A stretch of DNA of 64,000 nt, taken from NCBI GenBank assembly GCA_964522435.1, contig CAZFUL010000001.1:11612-75611 (forward strand). Direction: 5' to 3'. Below are positions 11,408 to 54,622 of the stretch, piece by piece. Numbering within the stretch: the first letter of the stretch is position 1; the number at the start of each line of letters is the position of its first letter. The notes under the pieces are model-generated. The model searched no databases. It had not been told where the DNA came from and saw only the letters and a program-made list of their open reading frames with translations. A program made the translations under genes and the position numbers. The stretch is from an uncultured Gammaproteobacteria bacterium (GTDB lineage: Bacteria > Patescibacteriota > Patescibacteriia > Magasanikbacterales > UBA922).

Positions 11408-12775
11408 TCAACTGTCTTTTACTATAGCACGAATTTGACCAGATAAAAATATGGAGCCGGTAACAAGAAGCAGGTCTTTTGTTTTTTGTTGAGAGCGACT
11501 CCAGGCGAGTGCTTCTGTTGGATTAACAAAGGCTTGTATGCGTGCGTTTGGAAGTTTTTTCTTACACATACGGGCAACGTCAGCAGGAAACGCAACTGCC
11601 CGAAACGGGTTCATCGTATCTCTGGTACAGGCAATACTTTTTGGTTCTAAACGTGCAAGTAATGTAATGAGGGTGGTAATTTTTTTATTTTCCGAAAAAC
11701 AAATAATAAGGTGAAGTTCTTTCCACAATTTGGGTTGTCTATTTTTTATCGAGAGCAGTGTTTCTACGGTTGAACGTATTTTTTCATTGTTATGCGCACC
11801 ATCTACCATAAAAAGAGGGGTGCTGGTCAATAGCTCTAGACGCAACGGCTGGACTGCGTTCTGTAATCCTTTTTGGATTGATGGAAGGGGAATCCCTAAT
11901 TTTTTTGCTGCTTCAATACAGACGAGTGCATTTTCTATTTGATGTGTTCCTGAAACAGGAAGATGGTAGCGTTGTTGTTCATACAGAAAATCAATACCTT
12001 GTAATTCTTGAGTAATGATCTGTGCCTGTTTTAAAGAAATGGCGGTAAAAGAAGCTGCATGTTGTTTGGTATATTCACTTTCAAACATACTGCGAAGATT
12101 TTTTTGTTTTTCTGCAGTAATAACATGACTGTCTTTTTTTATAATGCCTGCTTTTTCATAGGCAATTTTTTCTTTGGTATCTCCGAGAAGGTCAAGATGG
12201 TCGAGTCCGATATTGGTGATAATGGCCACATCAGTATATGGAAGAACATTGGTTGCATCGTATCTTCCACCACAGCCAACTTCTATAACAGCGTAGTCTA
12301 CCTTCTGTTGTGCAAACCAGAGAAATGCAATAGCATGACAAATTTCTAAAAATGTTGGTACGTCATATGGGGCTTGTTGAATACAACGATCAAGAATAGG
12401 TTGCAGTTGTTGTATGAGAGAAACAAATTCTTTTTCACTCATGAATGTATTATTGATACGCCATCGTTCTCGGATAGTACTTGGGTGAGGGGAATAGGTT
12501 GATCCGACCTTGTACCCTGCTGCATGAAGGATGCTATGCATGTAGGCGGTGGTAGAACCTTTGCCGCTTGTTCCGGTAACATGCACATAGTGGGGAATAT
12601 TGTGTTGTGGATTGTTAAGTAAAGACAAAAAATGTCGCATCTGTTTGATGCTTTGGGTACCTTGTGTTGTTCCTGCTTTGCGTTTTTTACGACGAAGGTT
12701 ATTAAAGGATAACACGTAATTGTAGGCATCTTGATAGGTCATAAGAGATATAGGTAATGTTGTAGAGGATAACAA
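11408..12775 (-). CDS. Mur-ligase family protein, FolC-like (folylpolyglutamate/dihydrofolate synthase-like)
   Basis: Has a P-loop 'VTGTSGKGST'. The Mur ligase middle and C-terminal domain architecture is present. Confidence 0.6.
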   Translation of the reverse strand: MLSSTTLPISLMTYQDAYNYVLSFNNLRRKKRKAGTTQGTQSIKQMRHFLSLLNNPQHNIPHYVHVTGTSGKGSTTAYMHSILHAAGYKVGSTYSPHPSTIRERWRINNTFMSEKEFVSLIQQLQPILDRCIQQAPYDVPTFLEICHAIAFLWFAQQKVDYAVIEVGCGGRYDATNVLPYTDVAIITNIGLDHLDLLGDTKEKIAYEKAGIIKKDSHVITAEKQKNLRSMFESEYTKQHAASFTAISLKQAQIITQELQGIDFLYEQQRYHLPVSGTHQIENALVCIEAAKKLGIPLPSIQKGLQNAVQPLRLELLTSTPLFMVDGAHNNEKIRSTVETLLSIKNRQPKLWKELHLIICFSENKKITTLITLLARLEPKSIACTRDTMNPFRAVAFPADVARMCKKKLPNARIQAFVNPTEALAWSRSQQKTKDLLLVTGSIFLSGQIRAIVKDS

Positions 12776-18100: not shown

Positions 18101-18172
18101 GCACTCGTCGTTCAATGGATAGGACGCCAGTTTGCGGAACTGGCAATCTAAGTTCGATTCTTAGCGGGTGCA
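18101..18172 (+). tRNA. tRNA-Arg (anticodon reads GCG)
   Basis: Cloverleaf folded by hand. Acceptor is gcactcg/cgggtgc, D-loop 'aatggata' has A20, anticodon stem is ccagt/actgg with loop 'ttgcgga', T-arm is ctaag-ttcgatt-cttag, discriminator is A. No CCA is encoded. Confidence 0.7.
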
Positions 18173-18444
18173 CTGCGCCTCGCCGTAGCGTTAGCGAAGG
18201 CGGGCTATCTGGCTACCATCAGACAAGCACGGGGTAAGCTCCCTCGTTGCGTAAGATAATTTTAATTCAAAGAATAAGCTTTTAAGTATGTACAAAAAGA
18301 AAAAAGTGGCAGAAAAGAAACATCGAAAAAATAAAGGAAAAAAATTAGCAACCTTACGATTTCGATAAATTGCTCATAAAAAATCCTCGATACGCTCGAG
18401 GGTTTTTTATTTGAGAAAATAGGCAATAGTGGTACAATTTTTGT

Positions 18445-20544
18445 ATGAACCTGACCACCCCCATTACACAACTATCTGGTGTTGGCATAACCATGCAAAA
18501 ACGTTTGGCAATGTTAGGTATTCATACCGTAGAAGAGTTGTTATATTATTTTCCCTTTCGCTACGAAGATGTGCGACATGTTGCCTGTATTGACCAGCTG
18601 GTGACGGGGACGCAAGTGCGTATAGAAGCGCAAATTGAGGCTATTGCAAGTCGTCGGGCACGCAAACGCCGTACCTACATTACAGAAGCCGTCGTGTCTG
18701 ATAGTTCTGGGCAATTGCGTGTGGTATGGTTTGGTCAACCGTATATAAGCAAAACCCTAAAAGTAGGGGATAGTGTGGTGCTTTCTGGGGTGGTGAAAGA
18801 AGACATGATTGGTTTGCAGCTGGTATCACCCAGTTATGAAAAAATACGGGCGCAGAAAGAAGAACAGACACTAGCGTCCGGAGAAATTTTTCCTATCTAT
18901 TCTCTTACTGCTGGCATGACCCAAAAGCAGCTGAGAAGCTATGTCAAAGAAGCATTACCGGCAGTTGTTGATATTGAAGAATGGCTTCCAGAAGAGATAC
19001 GAGATCGGGCAGATATTATGCCCTTGGTTGAGGCACTACAGGCAATTCATGTCCCAACGAGCTTGGAAGAACTCCATCATGCTGAGCGTCGATTAAAATT
19101 TGATGAAATATATATATTACAATTACGCGCGGAATTATTGCGTCAATCATTAGCGAGTGTGACGGCCAAGCAAATTATTTTTAAAGAAAAAGAAATAAAA
19201 GACATGGTAGCTGCATTACCATTTACCTTAACCAAAGATCAGAAGGTTGCTGCCTGGAACATATTTACTGATATGCAAGCGGCTCGTCCAATGAACCGGT
19301 TGTTAGAAGGGGACGTTGGTTCTGGAAAAACAGTGGTAGCAGCACTGTGTGCCTATAATACGATATTGAATGGCTATCAGGTCGCCTGCATGGCGCCAAC
19401 AGATATTTTGGCACGGCAGCATTTTCGCACCTTTCAATCCTTATTGCCAGGAGTGTCGATTGCCTTAGTCACGGGGGCGGGGGTTGAATTGTCTGCTCCA
19501 ACAACGAGTGATGTTGCGCTTGCCTTTGATAAGATAAAAACTAAAAAAGGAAAAAAAGACCGTATACGAACCTGGCTGCAAAGCGGAGAGATTTCTTTGG
19601 TTATTGGAACGCATGCATTACTCACAGAAACCGTGCAGTTTCATGAATTGGCTTTTGTTATTGTGGATGAGCAACATCGTTTTGGGGTAGAACAGCGAAA
19701 ACTGTTGAGAGAAAAATCTGGGAGTACGGCTATGCCACATTTTTTAAGTATGACCGCAACCCCGATTCCCAGATCCTTTGCCCTAACTTTGTATGGTGAT
19801 TTGGATGTGTCCTTTATTAAAGAAAAGCCACAAGGGAGAAAAGAGATTTATACGAAATTTGTGCAAGCCCATGAACGGCAAAAAGCCTATGATTTCATTC
19901 GTGGCCAAATAGATACAGGAAAACAGGTGTTTGTGGTCTGTCCTATGATTCACGTAGCTACGGACGGAGCAGAAAAAAAATCTGTTATGGCAGAGTACGA
20001 AAAACTGTCAACAAAGGTATTTGCTGATAAACGTATTGCGGTGTTGCACGGCAAAATGAAAGCAGAAGAAAAAAAAGAAATCATGCGCGCGTTTAAGGAA
20101 AAAGAACTTGATATTCTGGTATCTACCTCTGTTATTGAGGTTGGTATTGATATTCCAAACGCGAGTGTCATGATGATAGAAGGCGCTGAATCGTTTGGTT
20201 TGGCACAGCTGCATCAATTTCGAGGCCGTGTGGGGCGAAGCGATGCGCAAAGTTATTGTTTTGTCTTAACAGAGAGTGACAGCGATAGCGTGAAAAAACG
20301 ATTAGCGTTTTTTGAACAATGTCATGATGGCTTTGCCTTAGCGGAATTTGATTTAGAAGAACGTGGGCCAGGAGAAGTGTATGGCGTAAACCAAAGTGGC
20401 ATGATGCAGTTTCGACTGGCGTCTATGAAGGATAGAGAGCTTATTGTATTAGCCAGAGAGTTAGCCAAAGATATTGATTTTACGACATATCCCTTACTCA
20501 AAGAAAAGGTACACGAGTGGGAGCAGCGGGTGCATTTGGAATAA
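18445..20544 (+). CDS. recG: ATP-dependent DNA helicase RecG
   Basis: Wedge/OB N-terminus. Helicase motifs 'GDVGSGKTVVA', 'VIVDEQHRFGV', 'QLHQFRGRVGR'. Confidence 0.9.
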   Translation: MNLTTPITQLSGVGITMQKRLAMLGIHTVEELLYYFPFRYEDVRHVACIDQLVTGTQVRIEAQIEAIASRRARKRRTYITEAVVSDSSGQLRVVWFGQPYISKTLKVGDSVVLSGVVKEDMIGLQLVSPSYEKIRAQKEEQTLASGEIFPIYSLTAGMTQKQLRSYVKEALPAVVDIEEWLPEEIRDRADIMPLVEALQAIHVPTSLEELHHAERRLKFDEIYILQLRAELLRQSLASVTAKQIIFKEKEIKDMVAALPFTLTKDQKVAAWNIFTDMQAARPMNRLLEGDVGSGKTVVAALCAYNTILNGYQVACMAPTDILARQHFRTFQSLLPGVSIALVTGAGVELSAPTTSDVALAFDKIKTKKGKKDRIRTWLQSGEISLVIGTHALLTETVQFHELAFVIVDEQHRFGVEQRKLLREKSGSTAMPHFLSMTATPIPRSFALTLYGDLDVSFIKEKPQGRKEIYTKFVQAHERQKAYDFIRGQIDTGKQVFVVCPMIHVATDGAEKKSVMAEYEKLSTKVFADKRIAVLHGKMKAEEKKEIMRAFKEKELDILVSTSVIEVGIDIPNASVMMIEGAESFGLAQLHQFRGRVGRSDAQSYCFVLTESDSDSVKKRLAFFEQCHDGFALAEFDLEERGPGEVYGVNQSGMMQFRLASMKDRELIVLARELAKDIDFTTYPLLKEKVHEWEQRVHLE

Positions 20545-20654
20545 ATAAGAAGATTTTATTTTTACCTATCCCTGCTCAGCATACAAGCACGAAAGCAACT
20601 CGCTTCGGGTGCCAAGATGCACCCTGCGCTGCGACTGCTTTCTTTGCTTGTAGC

Positions 20655-20688
20655 TTTTAGGGGGATAGTATTAATTTTATCCCCCCAG
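20655..20688 (+). terminator. recG intrinsic terminator
   Basis: 'agggggatagtattaattttatccccc' hairpin just after the recG stop. Confidence 0.5.
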
Positions 20689-20693
20689 CCTGA

Positions 20694-20722
20694 TTGACAA
20701 AATAGCCAAAATCGGCTAGGGT
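20694..20722 (+). promoter_or_regulatory. sigma70-like promoter (TTGACA-N17-TAGGGT) with an internal palindrome
   Basis: 'ttgaca aaatagccaaaatcggc tagggt'. The spacer contains the inverted repeat tagcc-aaaat-cggcta. The promoter lies about 90 nt upstream of the island's first ORF. Confidence 0.4.
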
Positions 20723-20812
20723 CACTCGAATCGCTTTTTTTAAAGAAGGCGATTTGGTGGTCTTTCACAACGGAATTTTATATGCCCTTAGGTAGGGCGA
20801 AAGGGGATGATC

Positions 20813-22576
20813 ATGAAAGATTGGAATTGGAAAAAGTTGTCTTTTGTTGGGTCGCTCGTCATCATCGGCCTCACGGCCGTGGCTGGGCTGAGCCTGTTTT
20901 GGCACAACCTGCTCTGGAGCACGGTGTTTCCCGTGCCCTGGGCTGCCTGGATGGCGTCGGCCTTGATCGCCTTTGCGTCGCTCACCTTGCTGTCCTTCGG
21001 TGTTACCGGGACGCCTTTCCTTTTTTTGGCAGAGAAGATCTGCCTGCTGCCTTACAGCAAGGAGCAGACGTCCGAGCGGACCAAAGAGATTGAGCAGATC
21101 GCCGCCATTTTTGCATTCGCATTTTTGGCAGCCTTTTCGCTCAGCATCATTGGGACCAGCAAGTTCTGGTCATACCTGTTTCCAAAGCCATGGCACTGGA
21201 TTCCAGCGGTCGCAACCGCTGGGTTGGTGATTGCGCTTGAAATCATGGTTTTTCGCTCGGTGAAGGCGGGAATGAAGAAACGGATTGCCACCATCGTGAT
21301 GATGGCGTCGTTTCTGACGTTCTGTTTCGCGATCGAGATTATGGACAAGGACATCCTGCGTGAGAAAAAAATCATGCTGGATGAACAAGTTGCTCAAGCG
21401 CAGCATGATCAAGACCGGCGTGTTGCCCAGGCGAAAGAACTGAAAGAAGGAGAAATTCTTCGGCAGTTTGACGCCAAAGTGGCTGAAGCGCAGCAAAGCG
21501 CTGATGCTGCGGGCACACGGGCGCAAGCGGCAAATGCGAATCGGATTGCTGTGGTGACGCAGCAGTTTGAAGCGCAGATCGCGGCCGCAACATTGCACAT
21601 GAACTGTGCTCGGCAGCGGCTGTCGAACTGTTTGCCCGGATCACTCATGAAGCCGGGCAGCACTGAACGCGAAATCGCCGCAGCAGTGCGGCATCGCGAC
21701 GCCGCGGTGAAGCGCTTGGAAGTAGCTCGCAATACCGCGCTCATGAACGCTGGCGTTGCCGCCGGCGGGTCTGAAGGCGAGTCGCCTGCTCTGGCGCAAG
21801 CCCGGCAGGATCGAGACCAAGCCTTGGCCGCGTTGAACGGCCTGAGCAAAGAAGCGTTGCTCTCCGGGAGTGGCAACGTCCCCCTTCGCTTTGACGCGAC
21901 GGACTTTGACGGATTTCAGTCGACCATGAAGGCCTTTGGACGAGTTCTTTGGAACTCCCCGGCGACCTGGCCATGGTTTTTGCTGATGTTCTGCTTTGTC
22001 CTGTCCCTCGAGGCGATTCCTATCATTATGTTGTCCTTGCGCTCCTCTGCCTACCTTCGCTACTTGCTTTCGCAAGAGCCCAGCCTGGATCAGCTCGTGG
22101 CGCATGCCATGAACCTCAAGGTTGCGCAAGTAGACCTTGAGGAGCAGATCCCTGCTTCCGTGTTCAAAGCCGCGATGATGGGCGCGCTGTTTGCCAAACA
22201 GATCGCACAGATCGAGGCCTACCGTGAGCAGCTGGGCCAGGTCTTTGGCATGATCAAGCAAGGAGAGTTCAAGACTTTGCTTGATGTGACTCTGTTTCTC
22301 ATGCCAAGCTATAGCCTGGTAAAAGGTGCTCTCTGCGATATGCAGGTAGGGGGATACACATTCCCCAAGATCTTTTATCTGGATGCGGACATGTTTGATG
22401 GGTACAAGCCGCTTATTGAAGATTGCCTCGTCGATGCAGAAGCGGAGCGTGAGCGAGAAAAGCTCGCGGCTGCCAATCGTCCTGCTGGAGCAAACGGTCA
22501 TGTCCTCCGATCTGCCGGAGGCTTCGATGCCTCTGGTGCTGATGCGGTGAGCCTTTCTGCCGCCCCCGCCACCTGA
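20813..22576 (+). CDS. novel multi-pass membrane protein with a long coiled coil (GC-rich island gene 1)
   Basis: 587-589 aa. The start is the ATG at 20807 or at 20813; 20813 sits 5 nt after an 'aagggga' SD. Five N-terminal hydrophobic helices, a ~150-aa Ala/Gln/Glu-rich heptad-like segment, a sixth helix 'WPWFLLMFCFVLSLEAIPIIMLSL', and a ~180-aa C-terminal soluble region. No known catalytic motif. Confidence 0.6.
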   Translation: MKDWNWKKLSFVGSLVIIGLTAVAGLSLFWHNLLWSTVFPVPWAAWMASALIAFASLTLLSFGVTGTPFLFLAEKICLLPYSKEQTSERTKEIEQIAAIFAFAFLAAFSLSIIGTSKFWSYLFPKPWHWIPAVATAGLVIALEIMVFRSVKAGMKKRIATIVMMASFLTFCFAIEIMDKDILREKKIMLDEQVAQAQHDQDRRVAQAKELKEGEILRQFDAKVAEAQQSADAAGTRAQAANANRIAVVTQQFEAQIAAATLHMNCARQRLSNCLPGSLMKPGSTEREIAAAVRHRDAAVKRLEVARNTALMNAGVAAGGSEGESPALAQARQDRDQALAALNGLSKEALLSGSGNVPLRFDATDFDGFQSTMKAFGRVLWNSPATWPWFLLMFCFVLSLEAIPIIMLSLRSSAYLRYLLSQEPSLDQLVAHAMNLKVAQVDLEEQIPASVFKAAMMGALFAKQIAQIEAYREQLGQVFGMIKQGEFKTLLDVTLFLMPSYSLVKGALCDMQVGGYTFPKIFYLDADMFDGYKPLIEDCLVDAEAEREREKLAAANRPAGANGHVLRSAGGFDASGADAVSLSAAPAT

Positions 22577-22596
22577 AACACCATCCCACCGATTTA

Positions 22597-22670
22597 CGGA
22601 ACACGAACTGCCTTGGGCAACCAGTTCGTGTTCCTTCCCACCCCCTCACATAGGAGGTTTTTTTATTTTA
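22597..22670 (+). terminator. intrinsic terminator(s) after island gene 1
   Basis: 13-bp stem ggaacacgaactg/cagttcgtgttcc, then 'cctcacataggagg' followed by a T-run. Confidence 0.5.
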
Positions 22671-22831
22671 TGCGCATAATATAGGTATTGAGTAACTATT
22701 CTGTCCACCTATCCTACTTGATTTTTTTCATACAATATGTACTATCCTCCTTAACCGCTTGTGTAGAGAAACACAGATCCTCGTACGTTGCTGGCGGCTG
22801 CAAAGATACAGGAGACAAAGGAGCAAAGGCC

Positions 22832-23113
22832 ATGATTGATAAATCACTTGAACAGGTAGAGATCCTTATTTCTGCCATCGAGGCCGTGGGCCTCTCGGTT
22901 GAAAAGATCCTGCGCCGAGGGCAGGTGCATGGTTTTGTCCTGGATAATCAGCCCCCGCAGGGCTACCGCTATGATGAGCTGCTCACCTCCCGGGCACGGG
23001 AGTTGCGTGATGCCAAGAATCTGGGAGACTTCATCACTCGGATGGAGCATCTTCTGGGAACGAGCTACAATGCGGTTTTGAACCGCAATCTCTACATCGT
23101 GGCGTATCGGTAG
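22832..23113 (+). CDS. small paralog A (GYRYD-motif family, island gene 2)
   Basis: 93 aa from the ATG at 22832, preceded by 'aggagcaaagg'. The track ORF begins at 22688 but its N-terminus lies in AT-rich non-coding-looking DNA. Confidence 0.5.
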   Translation: MIDKSLEQVEILISAIEAVGLSVEKILRRGQVHGFVLDNQPPQGYRYDELLTSRARELRDAKNLGDFITRMEHLLGTSYNAVLNRNLYIVAYR

Positions 23114-23236
23114 CAAGGGGGCTTGCATTTTTTGCAAAAGTCTGTAGAATGGCTTCTAACCGCTTGAAACCAACAGAGAGGGAATTCCCAATGTATCTCG
23201 TGTGGCGGTTGCGAGATTGGGAAAAGGGAGAAATTC

Positions 23237-23527
23237 ATGAATTCGGCATACTTGGCGGCTTTGATGGCCGCGGTCAAGGCTTTGGGTAGCAACGCCCGAG
23301 CCTTCTCCGAGAACCCCGACATCGCCGGACTCAAGACCGGCACCAAGGCACCGACTGGGTATCGCTACGACCTCGCTGCTGGGGTCGCGTTCTCGAGCAG
23401 CCCGGAAGCGCAGCGTTTCTTCGACAAGATGAAGACGTTGCTCGGCTCCAGCTTCCTCCCCGTGGTGAAGCGCGAGATTTTCATCACCGAGATCGTCTTC
23501 AAGAAAGAAGAGGCCGCTTCCGCCTAG
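23237..23527 (+). CDS. small paralog B (GYRYD-motif family, island gene 3)
   Basis: 96 aa with SD 'aagggag'. The 'PTGYRYDL...KMKTLLGSSF' core aligns with paralogs A and C. Confidence 0.5.
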   Translation: MNSAYLAALMAAVKALGSNARAFSENPDIAGLKTGTKAPTGYRYDLAAGVAFSSSPEAQRFFDKMKTLLGSSFLPVVKREIFITEIVFKKEEAASA

Positions 23528-23751
23528 GCCTTCGGCGCCACGGGCAAGCAACCCCTCTTGTGCGAAGAGGAACAACCAACCAGGTCAACAGTGAGGAGCT
23601 GTTGACACCCACCAACAAAAAGACTCACCTACGCCCTTCGGGCTTCGGTGAGGAAGCGAGGGAAGCTGTTGGTCGCACCAGTGCACGCATCCGCGTTGCC
23701 TGCCAACAGATTCCATTCCAAGGGATAGTAGACATACTGTATCTTGGAATA

Positions 23752-23790
23752 TAAAAAACCTTGCACCAGAACGGTGCAGGGTTTTTTATT
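23752..23790 (+). terminator. intrinsic terminator after paralog B
   Basis: 'aaaaaaccttgcaccagaacggtgcagggtttttt'. Confidence 0.6.
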
Positions 23791-23913
23791 GCGCTTGATT
23801 TTTTTTTCTAACTTGTTTAGTATGAGCTACAACCGTTCTACCAAAGGAGTACCACGTTGCTATTGATGACTTGAACGGGCGTCACAATGGCAGTACGCTC
23901 TGAGGAGAGAAAA

Positions 23914-24210
23914 ATGTCAGGCGATCTCATCGATCAAATTGCGCGCCTCATTGCCGCGCTCGAGGCTTTTCAGCTGACTCCGGATCAGGTGATCCGTCAA
24001 ACGGACATCACCGGGTTCGAGGTCGGGGAGCGGGTGCCAGCGGGCTATTACTGGAATGCGATTCGGCATCGTGCCCAGGCGCAGGAGTTGAAGGACGCGC
24101 AAGGGGTACCCGCGTTCCAGATTCGGATGGAAGACCTCTTGAAGCACGACTACCAGTCTGTGGTTGAGGGGAAGCTCTTCATCAAGGCCGTCATTCGCCT
24201 GCGTGGGTGA
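23914..24210 (+). CDS. small paralog C (GYRYD-motif family, island gene 4)
   Basis: 98 aa from the ATG at 23914, which has the strong SD 'gaggagag' 5 nt upstream. The track start at 23887 is probably too far upstream. Core 'PAGYYWNAI...RMEDLLKHDY'. Confidence 0.5.
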   Translation: MSGDLIDQIARLIAALEAFQLTPDQVIRQTDITGFEVGERVPAGYYWNAIRHRAQAQELKDAQGVPAFQIRMEDLLKHDYQSVVEGKLFIKAVIRLRG

Positions 24211-24329
24211 CACATCCAACAAACAAGACCTGCCTGCTGGCAGGGAAGTGAGGGAAACTGTTGCTTGAAGGAGGTAAGCAACAGATCCCATTCAAGAATA
24301 GAGTATGTGAAAATAGTCTGTTGTTGAAT

Positions 24330-24365
24330 AAAAAAAATCCCGACTCAGTCGAGGATTTTTTTGTT
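24330..24365 (+). terminator. intrinsic terminator after paralog C; right edge of the island
   Basis: 'aaaaaaaatcccgactcagtcgaggattttttt'. Confidence 0.55.
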
Positions 24366-24469
24366 TATGAAGGGATGCCGGCAGCGTCAGTCAACAAATA
24401 GTTGACCTCGGCTGCCAGACATCATGCCCACATCATCGTGTCAGTTTTTTCCTCCGGTTGGTGCCACTT

Positions 24470-25813
24470 TTAACCGGTATGTTTAATTAACTCAGCAATA
24501 TTTTTTACCTGAAGGACGGTTGCTTTTGTTTTGGTCTTGGTAGCATTGCGTACTGTGGTAATGACTCGTTGTATGCCTAAGGCTTCGCATTCTTTTATGC
24601 GTTTTTCCAAAAAGCGTACGGAACGAATTTCTCCACCCAACCCTACTTCGCCAAATACCGCCAGGTCATTGCCTAACACTTTATCTTTATATGCGCTCGC
24701 AATGGCTAAACAGACTGCCAAATCAACACTGGGTTCTTGGGCTTTAATACCACCAACAATATTGACGTGCACGTCATATTGCCCCAACGTTAATCCCGCT
24801 CGTTTTTCTAATACGGCAATTAACACGTGTAGGCGGTTTAAATCAAAGCCACTGGCTTTACGCACGGGATAACCAAAGCTGGTTTTATTTACTAAGGCTT
24901 GTACTTCTACCAACAAGGGGCGAGAACCTTCCATCAAGCAGGTAACCACTGAGCCAGGCATTGCTTCTCCTCGTTCAGAAAGAAGGAGGGCAGAAGGGTT
25001 GGCAATTTGATGCAAGCCGGCCTCGTCCATATCAAACATGCCAATTTCATCGGTTGAGCCAAAACGATTTTTTACCGAACGAAGTAAGCGGATGTTATGA
25101 TAGCGATCACCTTCTAAATATAAAACCGTATCAACCAAATGTTCTAAGGTGCGTGGTCCTGCCACAGCGCCATCTTTTGTCACATGACCAATAAGAAGAA
25201 TGGCGGTTTGTTGTTCTTTTGCTGCGCCTAATAACTTTGCTGCGCAGGCGCGAATTTGAGACACATTGCCAGGTTCTCCCATAACCTCATCAGAGAAAAT
25301 GGTTTGAATAGAATCAACAATGGCGAGCGTTGGTTGTTCTTTTTTTATGGTGGCAATAATGCGTTCAACAGAGGTTTCATTACTCAACAGTAAGGTAGAG
25401 GTTTTTTTGTGTATGCGATCAGCACGTAATTTTATCTGTCCAATAGATTCTTCTCCAGATAAGTACAATGTTTTTGGAATAGCAAGCGCCATTTGTAACG
25501 AAAGGGTGGATTTTCCAATCCCAGGTTCTCCACCTAAGAGAATAAAACTCCCCGGAACAATGCCACCACCAAGAACACGATTGAGTTCTTCAATATTGGT
25601 TGAGACGCGGTTGACACTGTTGGTATCAATATCTTGTAGGGCAGTTGTTTTTGCGGTTGGATAGGCAGCGAGATCCGTTTGTTGCTTATGCACCGCAGTG
25701 ACTTGTTCTTTTATCGTTCCCCATTTACCACAAGTTAAACAACGGCCAGACCATTTTATATACTGGGCGTCACAATGATCGCAGACAAAAAGAGTGTCTA
25801 TTTTTTTATTCAT
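24470..25813 (-). CDS. radA: DNA repair protein RadA/Sms
   Basis: N-terminal zinc finger 'CDHCDAQYIKWSGRCLTCGKWG', Walker A 'GEPGIGKSTL', KNRFG motif, Lon-like C-terminus. Confidence 0.9.
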   Translation of the reverse strand: MNKKIDTLFVCDHCDAQYIKWSGRCLTCGKWGTIKEQVTAVHKQQTDLAAYPTAKTTALQDIDTNSVNRVSTNIEELNRVLGGGIVPGSFILLGGEPGIGKSTLSLQMALAIPKTLYLSGEESIGQIKLRADRIHKKTSTLLLSNETSVERIIATIKKEQPTLAIVDSIQTIFSDEVMGEPGNVSQIRACAAKLLGAAKEQQTAILLIGHVTKDGAVAGPRTLEHLVDTVLYLEGDRYHNIRLLRSVKNRFGSTDEIGMFDMDEAGLHQIANPSALLLSERGEAMPGSVVTCLMEGSRPLLVEVQALVNKTSFGYPVRKASGFDLNRLHVLIAVLEKRAGLTLGQYDVHVNIVGGIKAQEPSVDLAVCLAIASAYKDKVLGNDLAVFGEVGLGGEIRSVRFLEKRIKECEALGIQRVITTVRNATKTKTKATVLQVKNIAELIKHTG

Positions 25814-25843: not shown

Positions 25844-27886
25844 TTAAAATGCGGCATTCGTAATGCGTTCGGCTAATAATTCTTGTGCTTGTTTATTCAA
25901 GTGGATTTTATCTGAAGAATAAAGAGTATTCAAGGCGTCTTGGTTATTGGGATCTTCAAATAGATTATATACATCAATCACAACATCTGTAGCATCTAAA
26001 GCCCCGCCACCGAGTTGTCGTATCCATGTATTTGTTTCGTCTGTTTTTTCTTGGAGCGCAGGTCTCCAACTATCGTATCCTTTCCATGGGGTCACCACGA
26101 CCGCAATAACACGCAGATCATTGGCTTTGGCTTTTTGATAAATACGGCGTAGTCCCGATTGTGCATTATTTATATCATTCACCCCAGCCCAGACAATAAT
26201 ATCCGTAAAGCCTTCTCGTTTTAAATTTTTGTTTTTTATTTGGTCATACACAAAGGCTGCACTCCTGCCGGTAAATCCTCGTTTATCAACTATGATGTTC
26301 GCACAAGAAGCGGCAATAATATCCGCATAAGAGGTATTTGATTCTGTATTAGAATCTCCGACGGCCAATATTTTTTTTCCATTTCCATTGGGACAGTCAA
26401 CGCGCGCAGATGCTAAGTTTCCTTGGCCAGGCACGCTGCCTTTTTCTAAAATACGTTTTCCTGTTTTTGCCGGACAAAGGGCGTCATCTTTTGCATTGCT
26501 TGGATAAATGGGTGTTTGGTCACCGAGCCCCATTTTTGATAAGGTTGCAATAACTTTTTGTTCACCATAGTCATGTTTTTTTAAGCCATGCTCAGTGGTA
26601 ACCCCATTATTATTGCCGCCACGAGAAACATAAAATGCTTGAACCCCATTGCGAATTGCGGGCTGGGTACAGCCTCGTCCTCGTAGCACTTCTGCCATGA
26701 CTGATGGACCGTTATTGTGTCCAACATAGAGTAAGGTCATGGCGTCTTTTACCGAAATACCGGGGCATTTTTTTTGTATACTCGATAAATTAATTTGAAT
26801 GGTTGCTGCTGCTGTTGCGGTGTTCGTTTCTGCATCTATTCTGCTCGTACAGTCAAATCCTAAGGATGCGGGAAATTTTCCATAGCCTAATCCCCCTTGG
26901 CAATACTCATAATTCATTTGGAATAATCCATGATATTGGCTTCCTGGACGACGGGCATTAACATCTAAACCACTTTCTGCCGCAGCAAAGGCTTTGAGGA
27001 CACGCCAGTCATAGCCATAACAAGCGGCATAGCCTTTAAATAAATTATCAAGATCTGTATTGGATACATCAATATTCAAGTTAAAGTCTGTCTCTTTATT
27101 AAAGAACAAGTCTTCAATATTTTTCGTATTAATATAGCGTACTTTCAAATAGCTAAAATCTACCAAGCTGGGATTAACGGTATATAAAATAGTATAGGAT
27201 CCTGCTGCTAATACTATCCCAATAAGTGCATTCCCAATCATTTTTTTCGCTTCACTAATACTGCCACTATCACCACCAGAAAGTGTCCAGCGTAAGCCTG
27301 CAACAATAATAATGATTACAGAGATAATCCCCATAATCATAATAAGATATTTGTAGATGGCAGCAATATATTCTCCAAGAAAGGGAATGTATAAAAATGT
27401 TCCATCAGGATCTTCTTGGATTTTTACATCAGAAAAAGAGACGCCTGGAATGGATATTCTCGTTACTGGTTTTCCTGTGGCATTTTGGATTTCATCTAGG
27501 TTGATGTGTGGGTCAAGTAATTGATCAGTAAGAGAGCTTTGTCTTGGGTCAATAGGGTATTTTACGCCACGAAGATTACTGACGCAATAATCTAAATCAT
27601 AGGTCGCGTAGGCACCATCTTTACAATCCCATTGTTCACCTGGTTGCTCAGTATATTCATCAGTGCAGGCATTATCATCATCACAGTCACAATAACTTTT
27701 GCCATCATTTTGGCTGCTTTCACAATCACCAGAGCGACAATCAGCATTGGCTTGGCATTCTGCCCCAATCGGTAAGTCTGCTGCAATAACTCCTGTTGTA
27801 CTAAAAAAACAGAGCGATGCGACTATGAAAAACAAAATAAAAATATGGTTTAGTGTTTTTTTCACAAGCCTAAAAGCGTTTTCCAT
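25844..27886 (-). CDS. membrane-anchored multidomain envelope enzyme: Cys-rich N-domain, two TM helices, lytic transglycosylase (SLT) domain, SGNH/GDSL hydrolase domain
   Basis: SLT motifs 'AAAESGLD' ... 'YHGLFQMNYEY'. GDSL block 'ILAVGDSNTES' and 'VWAGVNDI'. Acidic Cys-rich segment 'CQANADCRSGDCESS...CDCDDDNACTDEY'. Twin hydrophobic helices near aa 180-240. Confidence 0.6.
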   Translation of the reverse strand: MENAFRLVKKTLNHIFILFFIVASLCFFSTTGVIAADLPIGAECQANADCRSGDCESSQNDGKSYCDCDDDNACTDEYTEQPGEQWDCKDGAYATYDLDYCVSNLRGVKYPIDPRQSSLTDQLLDPHINLDEIQNATGKPVTRISIPGVSFSDVKIQEDPDGTFLYIPFLGEYIAAIYKYLIMIMGIISVIIIIVAGLRWTLSGGDSGSISEAKKMIGNALIGIVLAAGSYTILYTVNPSLVDFSYLKVRYINTKNIEDLFFNKETDFNLNIDVSNTDLDNLFKGYAACYGYDWRVLKAFAAAESGLDVNARRPGSQYHGLFQMNYEYCQGGLGYGKFPASLGFDCTSRIDAETNTATAAATIQINLSSIQKKCPGISVKDAMTLLYVGHNNGPSVMAEVLRGRGCTQPAIRNGVQAFYVSRGGNNNGVTTEHGLKKHDYGEQKVIATLSKMGLGDQTPIYPSNAKDDALCPAKTGKRILEKGSVPGQGNLASARVDCPNGNGKKILAVGDSNTESNTSYADIIAASCANIIVDKRGFTGRSAAFVYDQIKNKNLKREGFTDIIVWAGVNDINNAQSGLRRIYQKAKANDLRVIAVVVTPWKGYDSWRPALQEKTDETNTWIRQLGGGALDATDVVIDVYNLFEDPNNQDALNTLYSSDKIHLNKQAQELLAERITNAAF

Positions 27887-52720: not shown

Positions 52721-54622
52721 ATGCCCGCACCATACTTGCGTAAAATTGGGACAGCTCCTATTGTAAAAGATGAAATTTGTTTATTTGCGCAAACCAATTT
52801 TCGTAATTCGTTGCGTCGTTTTGGTATTAAAACAGACGATCGACGACGACACATGTATATTATTGGAAAAACCGGGATGGGAAAATCAACCATGATGGAA
52901 AACATGATTTTGCATGATATTTATTCTGGGCACGGTGTCGCCTTGGTCGATCCCCATGGAGATTTTGCAGAAAAAATTATTAATTTTATTCCTCCTAATC
53001 GCGTCAATGACGTGGTCTATTTTAATCCTGCTGACTTAGCTAACCCGATTGGCTTTAATATCTTAGAAGTGATTAATGAAGAACAAAAACATTTGATTGC
53101 TGCTGGGCTTTTGGGGACCTTTAAAAAGATTTGGCCAGACGTATGGTCATCTCGTATGGAATATATTTTAAATAATACCTTGTTAGCATTATTAGAGTAT
53201 CCTGGTTCTACCTTGCTTGGAATTAATCGGCTCATGTCTGACGCAAAATATAGAAAAAAAGTAGTCAAACAAGTAAAAGATCCTGTGGTAAAGGCCTTTT
53301 GGAATGTGGAATTTGCGAGCTATTCTGAACGCTATGCCCAAGAAGCGACATCATCTGTTCAAAATAAGATTGGGCAATTTTTATCAACAACACTTATTCG
53401 TAACATTGTCTCGCAAACAAAGTCTACGGTTGATATTAGAAAGGTCATGGATGAAAAAAAGATTTTGATCATGAATTTGTCAAAAGGACGCATGGGAGAA
53501 GATAATAGTCGGTTGATGGGGGGCATGCTTATTACAAAAATTCAATTAGCAGCTATGGAACGCGTGGATACACCAGAAGCTGAACGAAAAGATTTCTTTT
53601 TATATGTAGACGAGTTTCAAAATTTTGCCACACCATCATTTGCGAACATTTTATCAGAAGCGCGCAAATACCGTTTAAGTTTAATTATGGCGCATCAATA
53701 TGTTGCTCAGTTGGATGAGGTCGTGGCTGATGCCGTGTTTGGAAACGTGGGAACCATTGTTACCTTTCGAGTTGGCGCGGCTGATGCGGAAGTGTTGGCA
53801 AAAGAGTTCGCCCCCTTATTTTTGGAAGAAGATATTGTGAATTTGAGTAAATATTCTGTATTATTAAAATTAATGATAGATGGTGTTGCGTCACAACCGT
53901 TTAGTGCCGTGACCATGCCTCCTATTGGCTCGCCAACCGGATCATCTGAAAAAGTGATTCGTGTATCTCGTGAACGCTATGGTCGGCCTCGTGAAGAAAT
54001 TGAAGAGAAAATTTTGCGCTGGAGTGGTTTGGGAGATGATCCTGATGCTGATTCATTTGACGAAGATGAGGGCGCAGGATTTTCTGCACTGCCAAAAGAG
54101 GCTGTGGTAAAAAAAGAAGAAAGACGACCTGACCAAAAACCACAAATGCCGAGAAGTACTGATAGACCGCGAGGAGATCGTCCAGGACAAAAGAGATCCG
54201 ATGCTCCACAGCGGCAATCTGCAACAGCACGGCAGGGGGATAGGCGAGGGCCGGTATCTTCGCCTAAACCACCCGCAGTCGTAGCCGAGGTTGTACCACC
54301 CCCAATACCAGCCGTGAGTATTTCTTTAGATGTATTACGTGAGGATACAACGGGAGCTTCTGATACAACGGTCAAACAAGATGATAGCTTATCTGTTGGT
54401 ATTGTATCTCGTATGGATGTTGCCAAGCGAAGCCCTCTTGTTGATGGCTTAATCGTCCCAAATACTGCAACGGTTGATACACCTGTGGTTGGAGTCTCAG
54501 AAGGAAATGATCAGACCATAAGTCATCCAGAAAAAAAGAAAAGAAGACGCCGTCGTCGTAAAAGTAATGGGGGAGGGCAGCAAGGCGCTCTGCCTTCTGC
54601 TGCAGCACCTGCTCAGGAATAA
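52721..54622 (+). CDS. TraD/VirD4-like (TrwB_AAD_bind/DUF87-type) P-loop ATPase with Arg/Pro-rich disordered tail
   Basis: Walker A 'IIGKTGMGKST'. 'VDPHGD'. Walker B 'FLYVDEFQNFAT'. C-terminal ~180 aa of low complexity ending 'KKRRRRRRKSNGGGQQG'. Confidence 0.55.
   Translation: MPAPYLRKIGTAPIVKDEICLFAQTNFRNSLRRFGIKTDDRRRHMYIIGKTGMGKSTMMENMILHDIYSGHGVALVDPHGDFAEKIINFIPPNRVNDVVYFNPADLANPIGFNILEVINEEQKHLIAAGLLGTFKKIWPDVWSSRMEYILNNTLLALLEYPGSTLLGINRLMSDAKYRKKVVKQVKDPVVKAFWNVEFASYSERYAQEATSSVQNKIGQFLSTTLIRNIVSQTKSTVDIRKVMDEKKILIMNLSKGRMGEDNSRLMGGMLITKIQLAAMERVDTPEAERKDFFLYVDEFQNFATPSFANILSEARKYRLSLIMAHQYVAQLDEVVADAVFGNVGTIVTFRVGAADAEVLAKEFAPLFLEEDIVNLSKYSVLLKLMIDGVASQPFSAVTMPPIGSPTGSSEKVIRVSRERYGRPREEIEEKILRWSGLGDDPDADSFDEDEGAGFSALPKEAVVKKEERRPDQKPQMPRSTDRPRGDRPGQKRSDAPQRQSATARQGDRRGPVSSPKPPAVVAEVVPPPIPAVSISLDVLREDTTGASDTTVKQDDSLSVGIVSRMDVAKRSPLVDGLIVPNTATVDTPVVGVSEGNDQTISHPEKKKRRRRRRKSNGGGQQGALPSAAAPAQE

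Follow-up and report, generated by a model that had tools for sequence, protein, structure and literature searches.

What is the origin of a GC-rich block of DNA lodged between recG and radA in a genome of much lower GC content, and what does this block carry? It occupies positions 20780-24370 of a 64,000-nucleotide (nt) window, by which we mean the whole stretch that was analysed (positions 11,612 to 75,611 of contig CAZFUL010000001.1, assembly GCA_964522435.1), from a Magasanikbacteria-like member of the candidate phyla radiation (CPR; Patescibacteria). A sequence-only reading of this DNA had described the block as a functional, horizontally acquired module of several transcription units rather than a product of random GC drift, a description that codon usage and the empty sites of related genomes support. 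Our analysis indicates that the block is probably a genuine accessory-gene island, acquired horizontally, which sits in a hypervariable gap where the 3' ends of recG and radA face each other. As a genomic island it is of an ordinary kind, but what it carries is exceptionally obscure. What is unusual about it is the complete orphan status of this cargo, a triplicated small-protein unit with a structured 3' module, and a GC excess that recurs at this hotspot in one direction.

Composition of the island

The GC content of 20780-24370 is 0.538, against 0.400 in the remaining window. In 1.5-kb windows the host averages 0.400 (standard deviation 0.016) and does not exceed 0.437, and the tetranucleotide distance of island windows of this size lies at z = 10-16 above the host mean. 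The GC step that had been noted by eye between recG and radA is thus confirmed by computation. At the left edge, GC in 200-nt windows climbs from 0.465 (20700-20899) to 0.57 (20800-20999), and at the right edge it falls from 0.53 (24100-24299) to 0.44 (24200-24399); the interior remains at 0.50-0.655, except for two AT-rich dips at 22600-22800 and 23700-23900. All 1-kb bins beyond 20-25 kb have a GC content of 0.355-0.444, and in 300-nt windows 20701-24350 is the sole large GC outlier of the 64 kb. The hand-counted 60-nt samples of the sequence-only reading were accurate in themselves (0.633 for 20861-20920 and 0.283 for 1621-1680), but the levels generalized from them were not: the host has about 40% GC rather than 30%, and the island 54% rather than 60%. 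The wrong host figure stems from the sample at 1621-1680, which is atypical of the host. That recG and radA belong to this host background was seen correctly, as both have 0.43 GC, inside the host range, and are full-length by Pfam.

The shift is equally clear in codon usage. GC at third codon positions (GC3) is 0.65-0.81 in the island genes, compared to 0.22-0.42 in the host genes of the window. The share of leucine codons that are TTA drops from 34% in the host to 0% in the island, and that of lysine codons that are AAA from 90% to 33%; ATA and AGA, at 19% and 13% in the host, are both at 0% in the island. Moreover, the amino acids Gly, Ala, Arg and Pro (GARP) are raised in three of the four island proteins (z = 2.3-3.3), so that the compositional shift reaches beyond synonymous sites. 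The composition of the island is foreign, and its codon usage is that of another genome.

The recG-radA gap in related genomes

Is the island an insertion, and is its site in any way special? Among GTDB representatives and JGI metagenomes, the closest relatives by RecG are metagenome-assembled genomes (MAGs) of Magasanikbacteria and the Parcubacteria group, whose RecG aligns with that of the window over its full length at 50-57% identity; RadA is 51-72% identical. No closer strain with an empty or a filled site was found in either collection, the best RecG match being at 56-57%. The gene order around the site is conserved: a 170-amino-acid (aa) protein, the tRNA and recG are followed on the opposite strand by radA and by genes for 680-aa, 213-aa and 412-aa proteins. 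Within this frame, the distance between the stop codons of recG and radA, as determined for 38 non-redundant Magasanikbacteria-like relatives, varies widely. Nineteen of them have a gap of 18-150 bp, 14 one of 0.2-1.1 kb and five one of 1.7-4.5 kb; the median is 177 bp, compared to 3,925 bp in the window. A comparison with related genomes had been suggested as a check for an empty site, and recG and radA are indeed adjacent, at 18-150 bp, in half of the relatives.

None of the relatives whose loci were compared encodes any of the four island proteins, and blastn and tblastx found no similarity among the gap fillings or between them and the island. Instead, the gap holds guaB, mpg (for a 3-methyladenine glycosylase), genes for a DksA/TraR-like and a NUDIX-like protein, small-gene pairs and several GC3-rich orphan open reading frames (ORFs); fillings are often GC-rich, and in many cases consist of one such orphan gene. 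A few gene families recur there according to the ORF listings, namely the NUDIX-like protein, a protein of about 200 aa and a pair of small genes common to two relatives, L003 and L005. Hence, the proposed insertion of a foreign module between recG and radA stands, but not as a one-off event: the site is a lineage-wide variable hotspot with differing cargo.

Segments of high GC, defined in 300-nt windows as those deviating by more than 3 median absolute deviations, concentrate at this hotspot, with 11 of 41 falling into the gap, which makes up 4.1% of the examined sequence (binomial p = 5e-7). The cassettes of two relatives, L002 and L040, are built as in the island, from an AT-rich promoter, a Shine-Dalgarno (SD) sequence, a GC-rich small ORF and an intrinsic terminator.

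Several further observations concern the contents of the gap and its surroundings. The NUDIX-like protein has 800-855 aa, of which the N-terminal part gives a weak NUDIX match, and is encoded in the gap of L029 (4967-7387), L034 (12225-14627) and L095 (12087-14654); in L029 it lies beside the ~200-aa protein, which L031 has without the 800-aa one. The small-gene pairs of L003 (12290-13011) and L005 (12414-13139), coding for proteins of ~100-117 aa and 85-112 aa, are homologous as judged by eye, a similarity undetected by tblastx at 1e-4, and the second gene of the L003 pair has a faint match to EACC1 (effector-associated constant component; E = 0.007). Isolated GC-high islets away from recG and radA, made up of GC3-rich orphan ORFs (GC3 0.7-0.9), are seen in Magasanikbacteria-like genomes at L013 3000-3659, L017 251-781, L022 4007-4561, L025 3349-3783, L016 3463-3777 and L046 3374-3700. 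Those of L022 and L025 encode a homologous 144-aa protein, and no Rfam family is found in the islets. In L024, L030 and L032, recG is directly followed by the homologue of the 680-aa gene and radA is missing there, which shows that the flank is not fully stable across the lineage.

Four genes without relatives

The island contains four genes, ORF1 to ORF4 (Table 1), and all its plausible genes are on the + strand. An SD sequence precedes each of the four, and GC by codon position follows the order GC3 > GC1 > GC2 in all of them. Long antisense ORFs (e.g. 21641-22501 and 23156-23575) were set aside as the usual shadow ORFs of GC3-rich genes.

ORF1 encodes a membrane protein with five N-terminal transmembrane (TM) helices, among them a duplicated FW..FP.PW unit, an Ala/Gln-rich coiled coil of about 200 aa, a sixth TM helix at residues 386-412 and a helical C-terminal region of about 170 aa. 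Pfam DUF4407 is the one family for which it gives a signal (PF14362; E = 5.4e-5, 23.1 bits, below the gathering cut-off of 31.3 bits), with residues 88-411 aligning to positions 7-283 of the 297-position profile. The aligned part comprises TM segments at 92-118, 128-151, 156-179 and 386-412 and the helical region at 180-380. DUF4407 proteins typically consist of a TM part, a long coiled coil and a further TM part, and ORF1 resembles them in this architecture as well as in the nearly full-length profile alignment; it differs in its sub-threshold score, in two extra N-terminal TM helices and in the additional C-terminal region. The literature mentions DUF4407 incidentally and names no function for it. 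By the positive-inside rule, the N-terminus of ORF1 is predicted to be cytoplasmic, the coiled coil to lie outside and the C-terminal domain inside. The NCBI gene call is a truncated version of 411 aa that starts at M177; since the Pfam alignment begins upstream of this start codon, the long form is supported. The public annotation of 20813-22576, and likewise that of 23237-23527, appears incomplete.

As judged by pairwise comparison, ORF2, ORF3 and ORF4 are three diverged tandem duplicates of one predicted soluble protein of 93-98 aa. ORF2 matches ORF4 with E = 6e-17 at 33% identity and ORF3 with E = 2e-10 at 25% identity, and all three have in common a P-x-G-Y-[RY]-[YW] loop and an F..[RK]M..LL helix. 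An AlphaFold2 (AF2) model of ORF2, calculated from the three-sequence alignment, has a pLDDT of 84.5 and an H-H-E-H-H-E layout (H, helix; E, strand); neither a fold match nor, by sequence search, a match in the PDB was found for the small proteins. For ORF4, an in-frame ATG upstream at 23887 is the less likely start, the NCBI gene call P0006 having 98 aa, and ORF3 is recorded only in the Logan gene calls of SRR12762285, not at NCBI. Between the C-terminus of ORF1 and the small proteins there is no similarity (hhalign probability 0.6%).

Searches for homologues returned the island itself. For ORF1, only the query was found by a word-indexed search of a collection of 5.8 billion clusters (about 15 billion proteins), by a second run in which the coiled coil was masked, and by tblastn, which covered phages, plasmids, IMG/VR and 160 retrieved loci. 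A profile of the small proteins, searched against the 5.8 billion clusters and in scans of metagenome and viral loci, found only the three paralogues. When this profile was run with HMMER over all of 1.84 billion representatives, it gave the three paralogues and four giant proteins; the latter matched over several short stretches, are presumably repeat proteins that contain a YD-like motif, and were rejected as spurious. None of the four island proteins matches a defence family of PADLOC-DB v2 at E <= 0.1, the PHROGs phage-family and NCBIfam models gave nothing, and the Pfam, PADLOC, PHROGs and NCBIfam models revealed in them no domain linked to toxins, secretion or immunity.

Transcription units and the 3' module

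The division of the island into four co-oriented units, each with its own promoter-like box and terminator, had been read off the sequence by eye and is confirmed here, with terminators after all four genes (Table 1). Hairpins followed by a T-run number 17 in the 20-25 kb region, compared to 6.0 ± 2.6 expected. The promoter boxes of the island are sigma-70-like and come from a dedicated pattern search; an automatic promoter scan reported no + strand promoter in the island. In the small genes, the -10 box is followed after 6-7 nt by the motif [TC][TA]ACCG[CT]T (TTAACCGCT) in the 5' untranslated region (5'UTR). The 64 kb contain this arrangement three times in all, once ahead of each small gene, and so the duplication unit took in the promoter and the 5'UTR.

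The duplication unit also extends downstream. The regions 3' of ORF3 and ORF4 can be aligned as homologous, and both fold far better than shuffled sequences (z = -7.3 and -8.2, respectively). Their consensus comprises four hairpins including the terminator, with compensatory changes in 8 of 39 base pairs, and a covariance model built from it, R1, scores 156.5 bits for the ORF3 copy and 130.2 bits for the ORF4 copy. The stem words GAGGGAA[GA]CTGTTG and CAACAGAT[TC]CCATTC are nearly invariant, with adjacent proteins that are only 25-33% identical, and the words GAGGGAANCTGTTG...CAACAGATNCCATTC resemble repetitive extragenic palindromic (REP) elements. Between genes within 23171-24323, CAACAG/CTGTTG is present eight times, the frequency over the whole window being about 0.9 per kb, and it forms the stem of one of the two extra hairpins behind ORF3. 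Judging from the alignment, this module of ~115-140 nt was copied together with ORF3 and ORF4, its stems staying near-identical or compensatory as the proteins diverged. With two copies, this pattern is suggestive, although not proof, of a functional RNA. It may be an mRNA-stabilising or protein-binding element, or it may represent REP-like palindromes carried along from the donor. Beyond these two copies, R1 gave no match in the window or in the loci of 53 relatives, and viral contigs scanned for the exact pattern of the module did not contain it. The 5'UTR of ORF3 (23165-23200) contains CCAACAGAGAGGGAATTCCCAATG, in which the module words CAACAGA, GAGGGAA and TCCCAAT stand in another order; it may be what is left, in degenerate form, of a third copy that the module had behind ORF2.

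Such structure, and the fact that GC-rich segments in AT-rich genomes are often RNAs, raises the question of whether the GC-rich stretches are structured non-coding RNA genes rather than protein genes. The structured parts, however, lie outside the ORFs, and no Rfam family accounts for them: with Rfam 15, only the two tRNAs of the window match, as do only tRNAs in 15 relatives' loci, and the best match within 20400-24600, to the Thr leader, lies over a terminator and scores 34 bits where 55 are required. Known RNA genes such as rRNA, RNase P or tmRNA were ruled out as the cause of the GC rise by Rfam at both gathering and E-value thresholds. Given the coding evidence for all four ORFs, that is the codon-position GC pattern, the SD sequences, the significant paralogy of the small proteins, the TM helices and nearly full-length DUF4407 alignment of the 587-aa ORF1, and the confident AF2 model, we reject this explanation as extremely improbable.

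Integrity of the contig and promoters of the lineage's own type

Might the island simply be a fragment of a GC-richer organism that was mis-joined into the contig? The genome is a metagenome assembly, and the sole independent contig, a Logan contig of SRR12762285 of 1,595 bp that is 100% identical to 22482-24076, covers the interior of the island only; the Logan look-up had no record of the window's RecG and ORF1, nor was the predicted adjoining fragment found. Nevertheless, an internal insert of 3.6 kb would need two mis-joins, placed exactly between two intact syntenic genes, and there is no repeat common to both junctions. Independent MAGs from other studies have analogous GC-rich cassettes at the same site, and the promoters and terminators of the island are of the lineage's type, the last terminator being bidirectional and facing radA.

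The word CTTGAYTTTTT, a -35 box with a T-tract that is followed by the -10 box some 11-12 nt on, precedes ORF2 (22717-22727) and ORF4 (23794-23804), and also stands upstream of GC-rich cassettes in L006, L034 and L040. In the relatives it likewise occurs where no GC-rich sequence follows, for example at L018 8595. It looks like a strong promoter typical of the lineage, and its presence in the relatives makes the island's promoters ones of the lineage's own type. Promoters and terminators of this type argue against a chimera with an unrelated organism, which we regard as highly unlikely, and they argue for an exchange within, or an adaptation to, this lineage. All sites noted in the relatives are L040 12065 and 12444, L034 16612(-), L006 13972, L092 5403, L018 8595 and L022 6045.

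Mobility and proposed mode of acquisition

If the island is a genuine part of this genome, how did it arrive? The sequence-only reading had seen no integrase, transposase or flanking direct repeat, and domain scans and a shuffle test of the edges bear this out. No integrase, recombinase, transposase, relaxase or phage gene was found on either strand of 20545-24469 with Pfam, PHROGs and PADLOC; the longest word common to the two edges has 7-8 nt, compared to 7-12 nt in shuffles; and there are no DNA or protein matches to the island in phage, plasmid and IMG/VR collections. The nearest tRNA, a tRNA-Arg, is set apart from the island by recG, as had been pointed out, and is syntenic in the relatives, with L002, L004, L040 and L017 having it at the equivalent position. 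The recG-radA hotspot, variable across the lineage, thus shows neither an integrase or transposase gene nor a tRNA target or repeats at its edges. With no mobility gene visible, the earlier judgement that the route of acquisition is unclear holds.

These findings bear on the idea that the island is the remnant of an integrative mobile element, be it a decayed prophage, an integrative and mobilizable element or an integron-like cassette array, that has lost its integrase. The varying cargo of the site and the orphan genes, which are typical of mobile-element cargo, would fit such an origin, and the hairpin modules of ORF3 and ORF4 with their conserved stems superficially recall attC or REP-type sites. 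In attC sites, the R-box consensus is RYYYAAC/GTTRRRY. The stems of the island, as read by eye and without an attC model, are instead GAGGGAA/(T)TCCC on the outside and CTGTTG/CAACAG on the inside; the cassettes have promoters and terminators of their own; and the module is absent from the loci of 53 relatives. Together with the lack of any mobility gene, flanking repeat or viral or plasmid match, this renders a decayed element very unlikely.

A different possibility is that the cassettes are native to the gene pool of the lineage and owe their high GC3 not to a GC-rich donor but to a local cause, either a recombination hotspot with GC-biased gene conversion or selection acting on the transcripts. 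It draws on the lineage-type promoters, on the recombination genes that flank the hotspot, and on the course of the GC profile, as high GC extends over the transcribed parts, starting with the 5'UTR and ending at the terminator, and only promoter and terminator are AT-rich. Moreover, the anomalous cassettes at this site are in every case GC-richer than their genome, whatever its GC content (0.37 to 0.53). A purely local process, however, fits poorly with the accompanying shift of GC1, GC2 and amino-acid usage (the GARP enrichment), a shift suggesting a long residence in a GC-richer background. It also leaves unexplained that recG and radA have no marked GC gradient toward the site, and that cargo of host-like GC (guaB, mpg and the NUDIX-like gene) sits in the same hotspot without enrichment. 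We thus consider local GC drive unlikely; what keeps it in play is that every anomalous cassette at this site is GC-richer than its genome and that the promoters are native.

Horizontal acquisition remains the explanation that we favor, and several points weigh against it. Scans of about 15 billion proteins and of viral, plasmid, metagenome and genome sequences brought up no donor or homologue of the four proteins, so that transfer is deduced from composition and empty sites only. As the relatives are only 50-57% identical in RecG, neither a recent gain nor a strain-level presence/absence can be demonstrated. The independent assembly reaches neither junction. Finally, the GC-anomalous cassettes at the site are always GC-richer than the genome and never poorer, a bias which is not obviously expected of random donors and which leaves room for a local process.

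A scenario in keeping with acquisition would start from a donor genome of about 55-60% GC, plausibly another Patescibacterium, since the promoters are of the lineage's own type. Once taken up, the DNA would have been brought in through double homologous recombination within recG and radA, the mechanism described for hotspots that do not depend on mobile elements (Oliveira et al., 2017), and the small-gene unit would later have been amplified in place.

Coordinates and neighboring features

Table 1. Positions in the window of the genes and signals of the island and of the genes that border it
Feature	Coordinates	Strand	Remarks
tRNA-Arg(GCG)	18101-18173	+	Conserved synteny upstream of recG; not an insertion target
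recG, intact, 699 aa	18445-20544	+	Pfam RecG_wedge, DEAD, Helicase_C; left flank of the hotspot
recG-ORF1 spacer, 44% GC	20545-20812	+	Putative promoter-like TTGACA-17-TAGGGT at 20694-20722; hairpin at 20726-20757
ORF1, DUF4407-like membrane protein, 587 aa	20813-22576	+	GC3 0.65; SD AGGGGA before 20813; alternative ATG at 20807
ORF1 terminator region	22598-22669	+	13-bp perfect hairpin (inverted repeat), short second hairpin, T-run
ORF2 promoter-like box and shared 5'UTR motif	22718-22759	+	TTGATT-16-TACTAT at 22718-22745; pattern search
ORF2, 93 aa, soluble, paralogue 1	22832-23113	+	SD GGAG; GC3 0.65
ORF2 terminator and overlapping ORF3 promoter-like box with 5'UTR motif	23113-23164	+	Terminator at 23113-23133; TTGCAT-16-TAGAAT at 23123-23150
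ORF3, 96 aa, paralogue 2	23237-23527	+	SD GGGAG; GC3 0.81
ORF3 3' region	23528-23793	+	Two extra hairpins; three-hairpin module at 23617-23754; bidirectional terminator at 23751-23793
ORF4 promoter-like box and shared 5'UTR motif	23795-23837	+	TTGATT-17-TAGTAT at 23795-23823; pattern search
ORF4, 98 aa, paralogue 3	23914-24210	+	SD GAGGAG 8 nt upstream; GC3 0.73
ORF4 3' region	24222-24362	+	Structured module at 24222-24333; bidirectional terminator at 24330-24362, facing radA
radA, intact, 447 aa	24470-25813	-	Pfam AAA_25, Zn ribbon, Lon_C; right flank, convergent with recG

Next to radA, the gene of the 680-aa protein (25844-27886, - strand) keeps its synteny across the relatives; the protein has a Cys-rich N-terminus, a weak TM segment resembling a type IV secretion system pilin, a weak match to SLT lytic transglycosylases and a GDSL lipase domain. 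Further away, the window has a second and lesser GC outlier in 300-nt windows, and no others, at 54001-54450 within the ORF 52721-54622. It corresponds to the Pro/Arg-rich low-complexity C-terminal tail of an ATPase resembling type IV coupling proteins (TrwB_AAD_bind, TraG-D_C).

Function, meaning and comparison with known systems

What can be discerned about the role of the island proteins? From the architecture of ORF1 and by analogy with effector loci that are followed by diverged small paralogues, ORF1 might display its coiled coil on the cell surface, and the paralogues might serve as small cytoplasmic partners, regulators or immunity-like proteins, in a system for cell-envelope conflict or host interaction. 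We put this forward tentatively, as a doubtful proposal at best. The 3' hairpin modules would, at a guess, stabilise the mRNAs or bind a protein.

A bolder and distinctly improbable idea is that the island belongs to an undescribed class of minimal, self-contained cassettes in Magasanikbacteria-like CPR, which would prefer the recG-radA gap, occur at a few other sites too, and always be GC-richer than their genome. Each would consist of a CTTGAYTTTTT promoter, a 5'UTR, an SD sequence, a GC3-rich orphan ORF and an intrinsic terminator. If such a class existed, it would call for a dedicated mechanism of mobility or generation, or for a GC content driven by biased gene conversion, and would differ from one-off horizontal gene transfer (HGT); the triplicated small proteins and the 3' RNA module would then form a cassette-borne protein-RNA system of a new kind.

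By itself, the island opens no major question. It is, however, a clean case of a streamlined CPR genome that still acquires and expresses foreign or fast-evolving genes, and the integrase-free recG-radA hotspot is a possible landmark for accessory and conflict genes in Patescibacteria MAGs. Its cargo is functional dark matter: four expressed-looking genes without relatives among about 15 billion proteins.

How does the locus compare to systems already described? Some toxin and effector genes have behind them an array of small immunity genes that are paralogous and have diverged. The island resembles such loci, by analogy, in its layout of a large gene followed by tandem, diverged genes for small soluble paralogues on the same strand. 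It departs from them in that the small genes are each furnished with a promoter and a terminator and in that the C-terminus of ORF1 is predicted to be cytoplasmic.

Like REP elements, 3' stabiliser hairpins and attC sites, the island has palindromic 3' modules with conserved stem words and variable loops, and its CAACAG/CTGTTG stems occur in both orders. It differs in that there are only two full copies of the module, that the R-box consensus of attC is absent, and that neither an integrase nor a gene for a REP-associated tyrosine transposase (RAYT/TnpA) is present. The island also differs from an integron cassette array or a cluster of attC sites lacking an integron-integrase (CALIN), the cassettes of which are promoterless, in that its own cassettes carry promoters and terminators; an integrase, which is optional for a CALIN, is not present.

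Closer parallels are found among genomic islands and hotspots. Mobile elements are missing from many HGT hotspots, in which homologous recombination is elevated in the core genes on either side and which tend to have recombination or repair genes as neighbors (PMC5635113). As in hotspots free of mobile genetic elements (Oliveira et al., 2017), the recG-radA gap is bounded by core genes, variably occupied, filled with unrelated content that turns over, and flanked by recombination and repair genes. Those hotspots were defined within species, whereas our comparison spans genomes that are 50-57% identical in RecG, and the strong one-directional GC excess of orphan cassettes is a feature of the recG-radA gap that is absent from their concept. 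In Patescibacteria, compositional islands are reported to be numerous, with genes exchanged for the most part inside the phylum (PMC12455944). The island agrees with these examples in having atypical GC and tetranucleotide composition in an ultra-small CPR genome; they differ in that the published ones carry recognisable functions, such as restriction-modification systems and translation genes, and the recG-radA island a cargo that lacks annotation and homologues.

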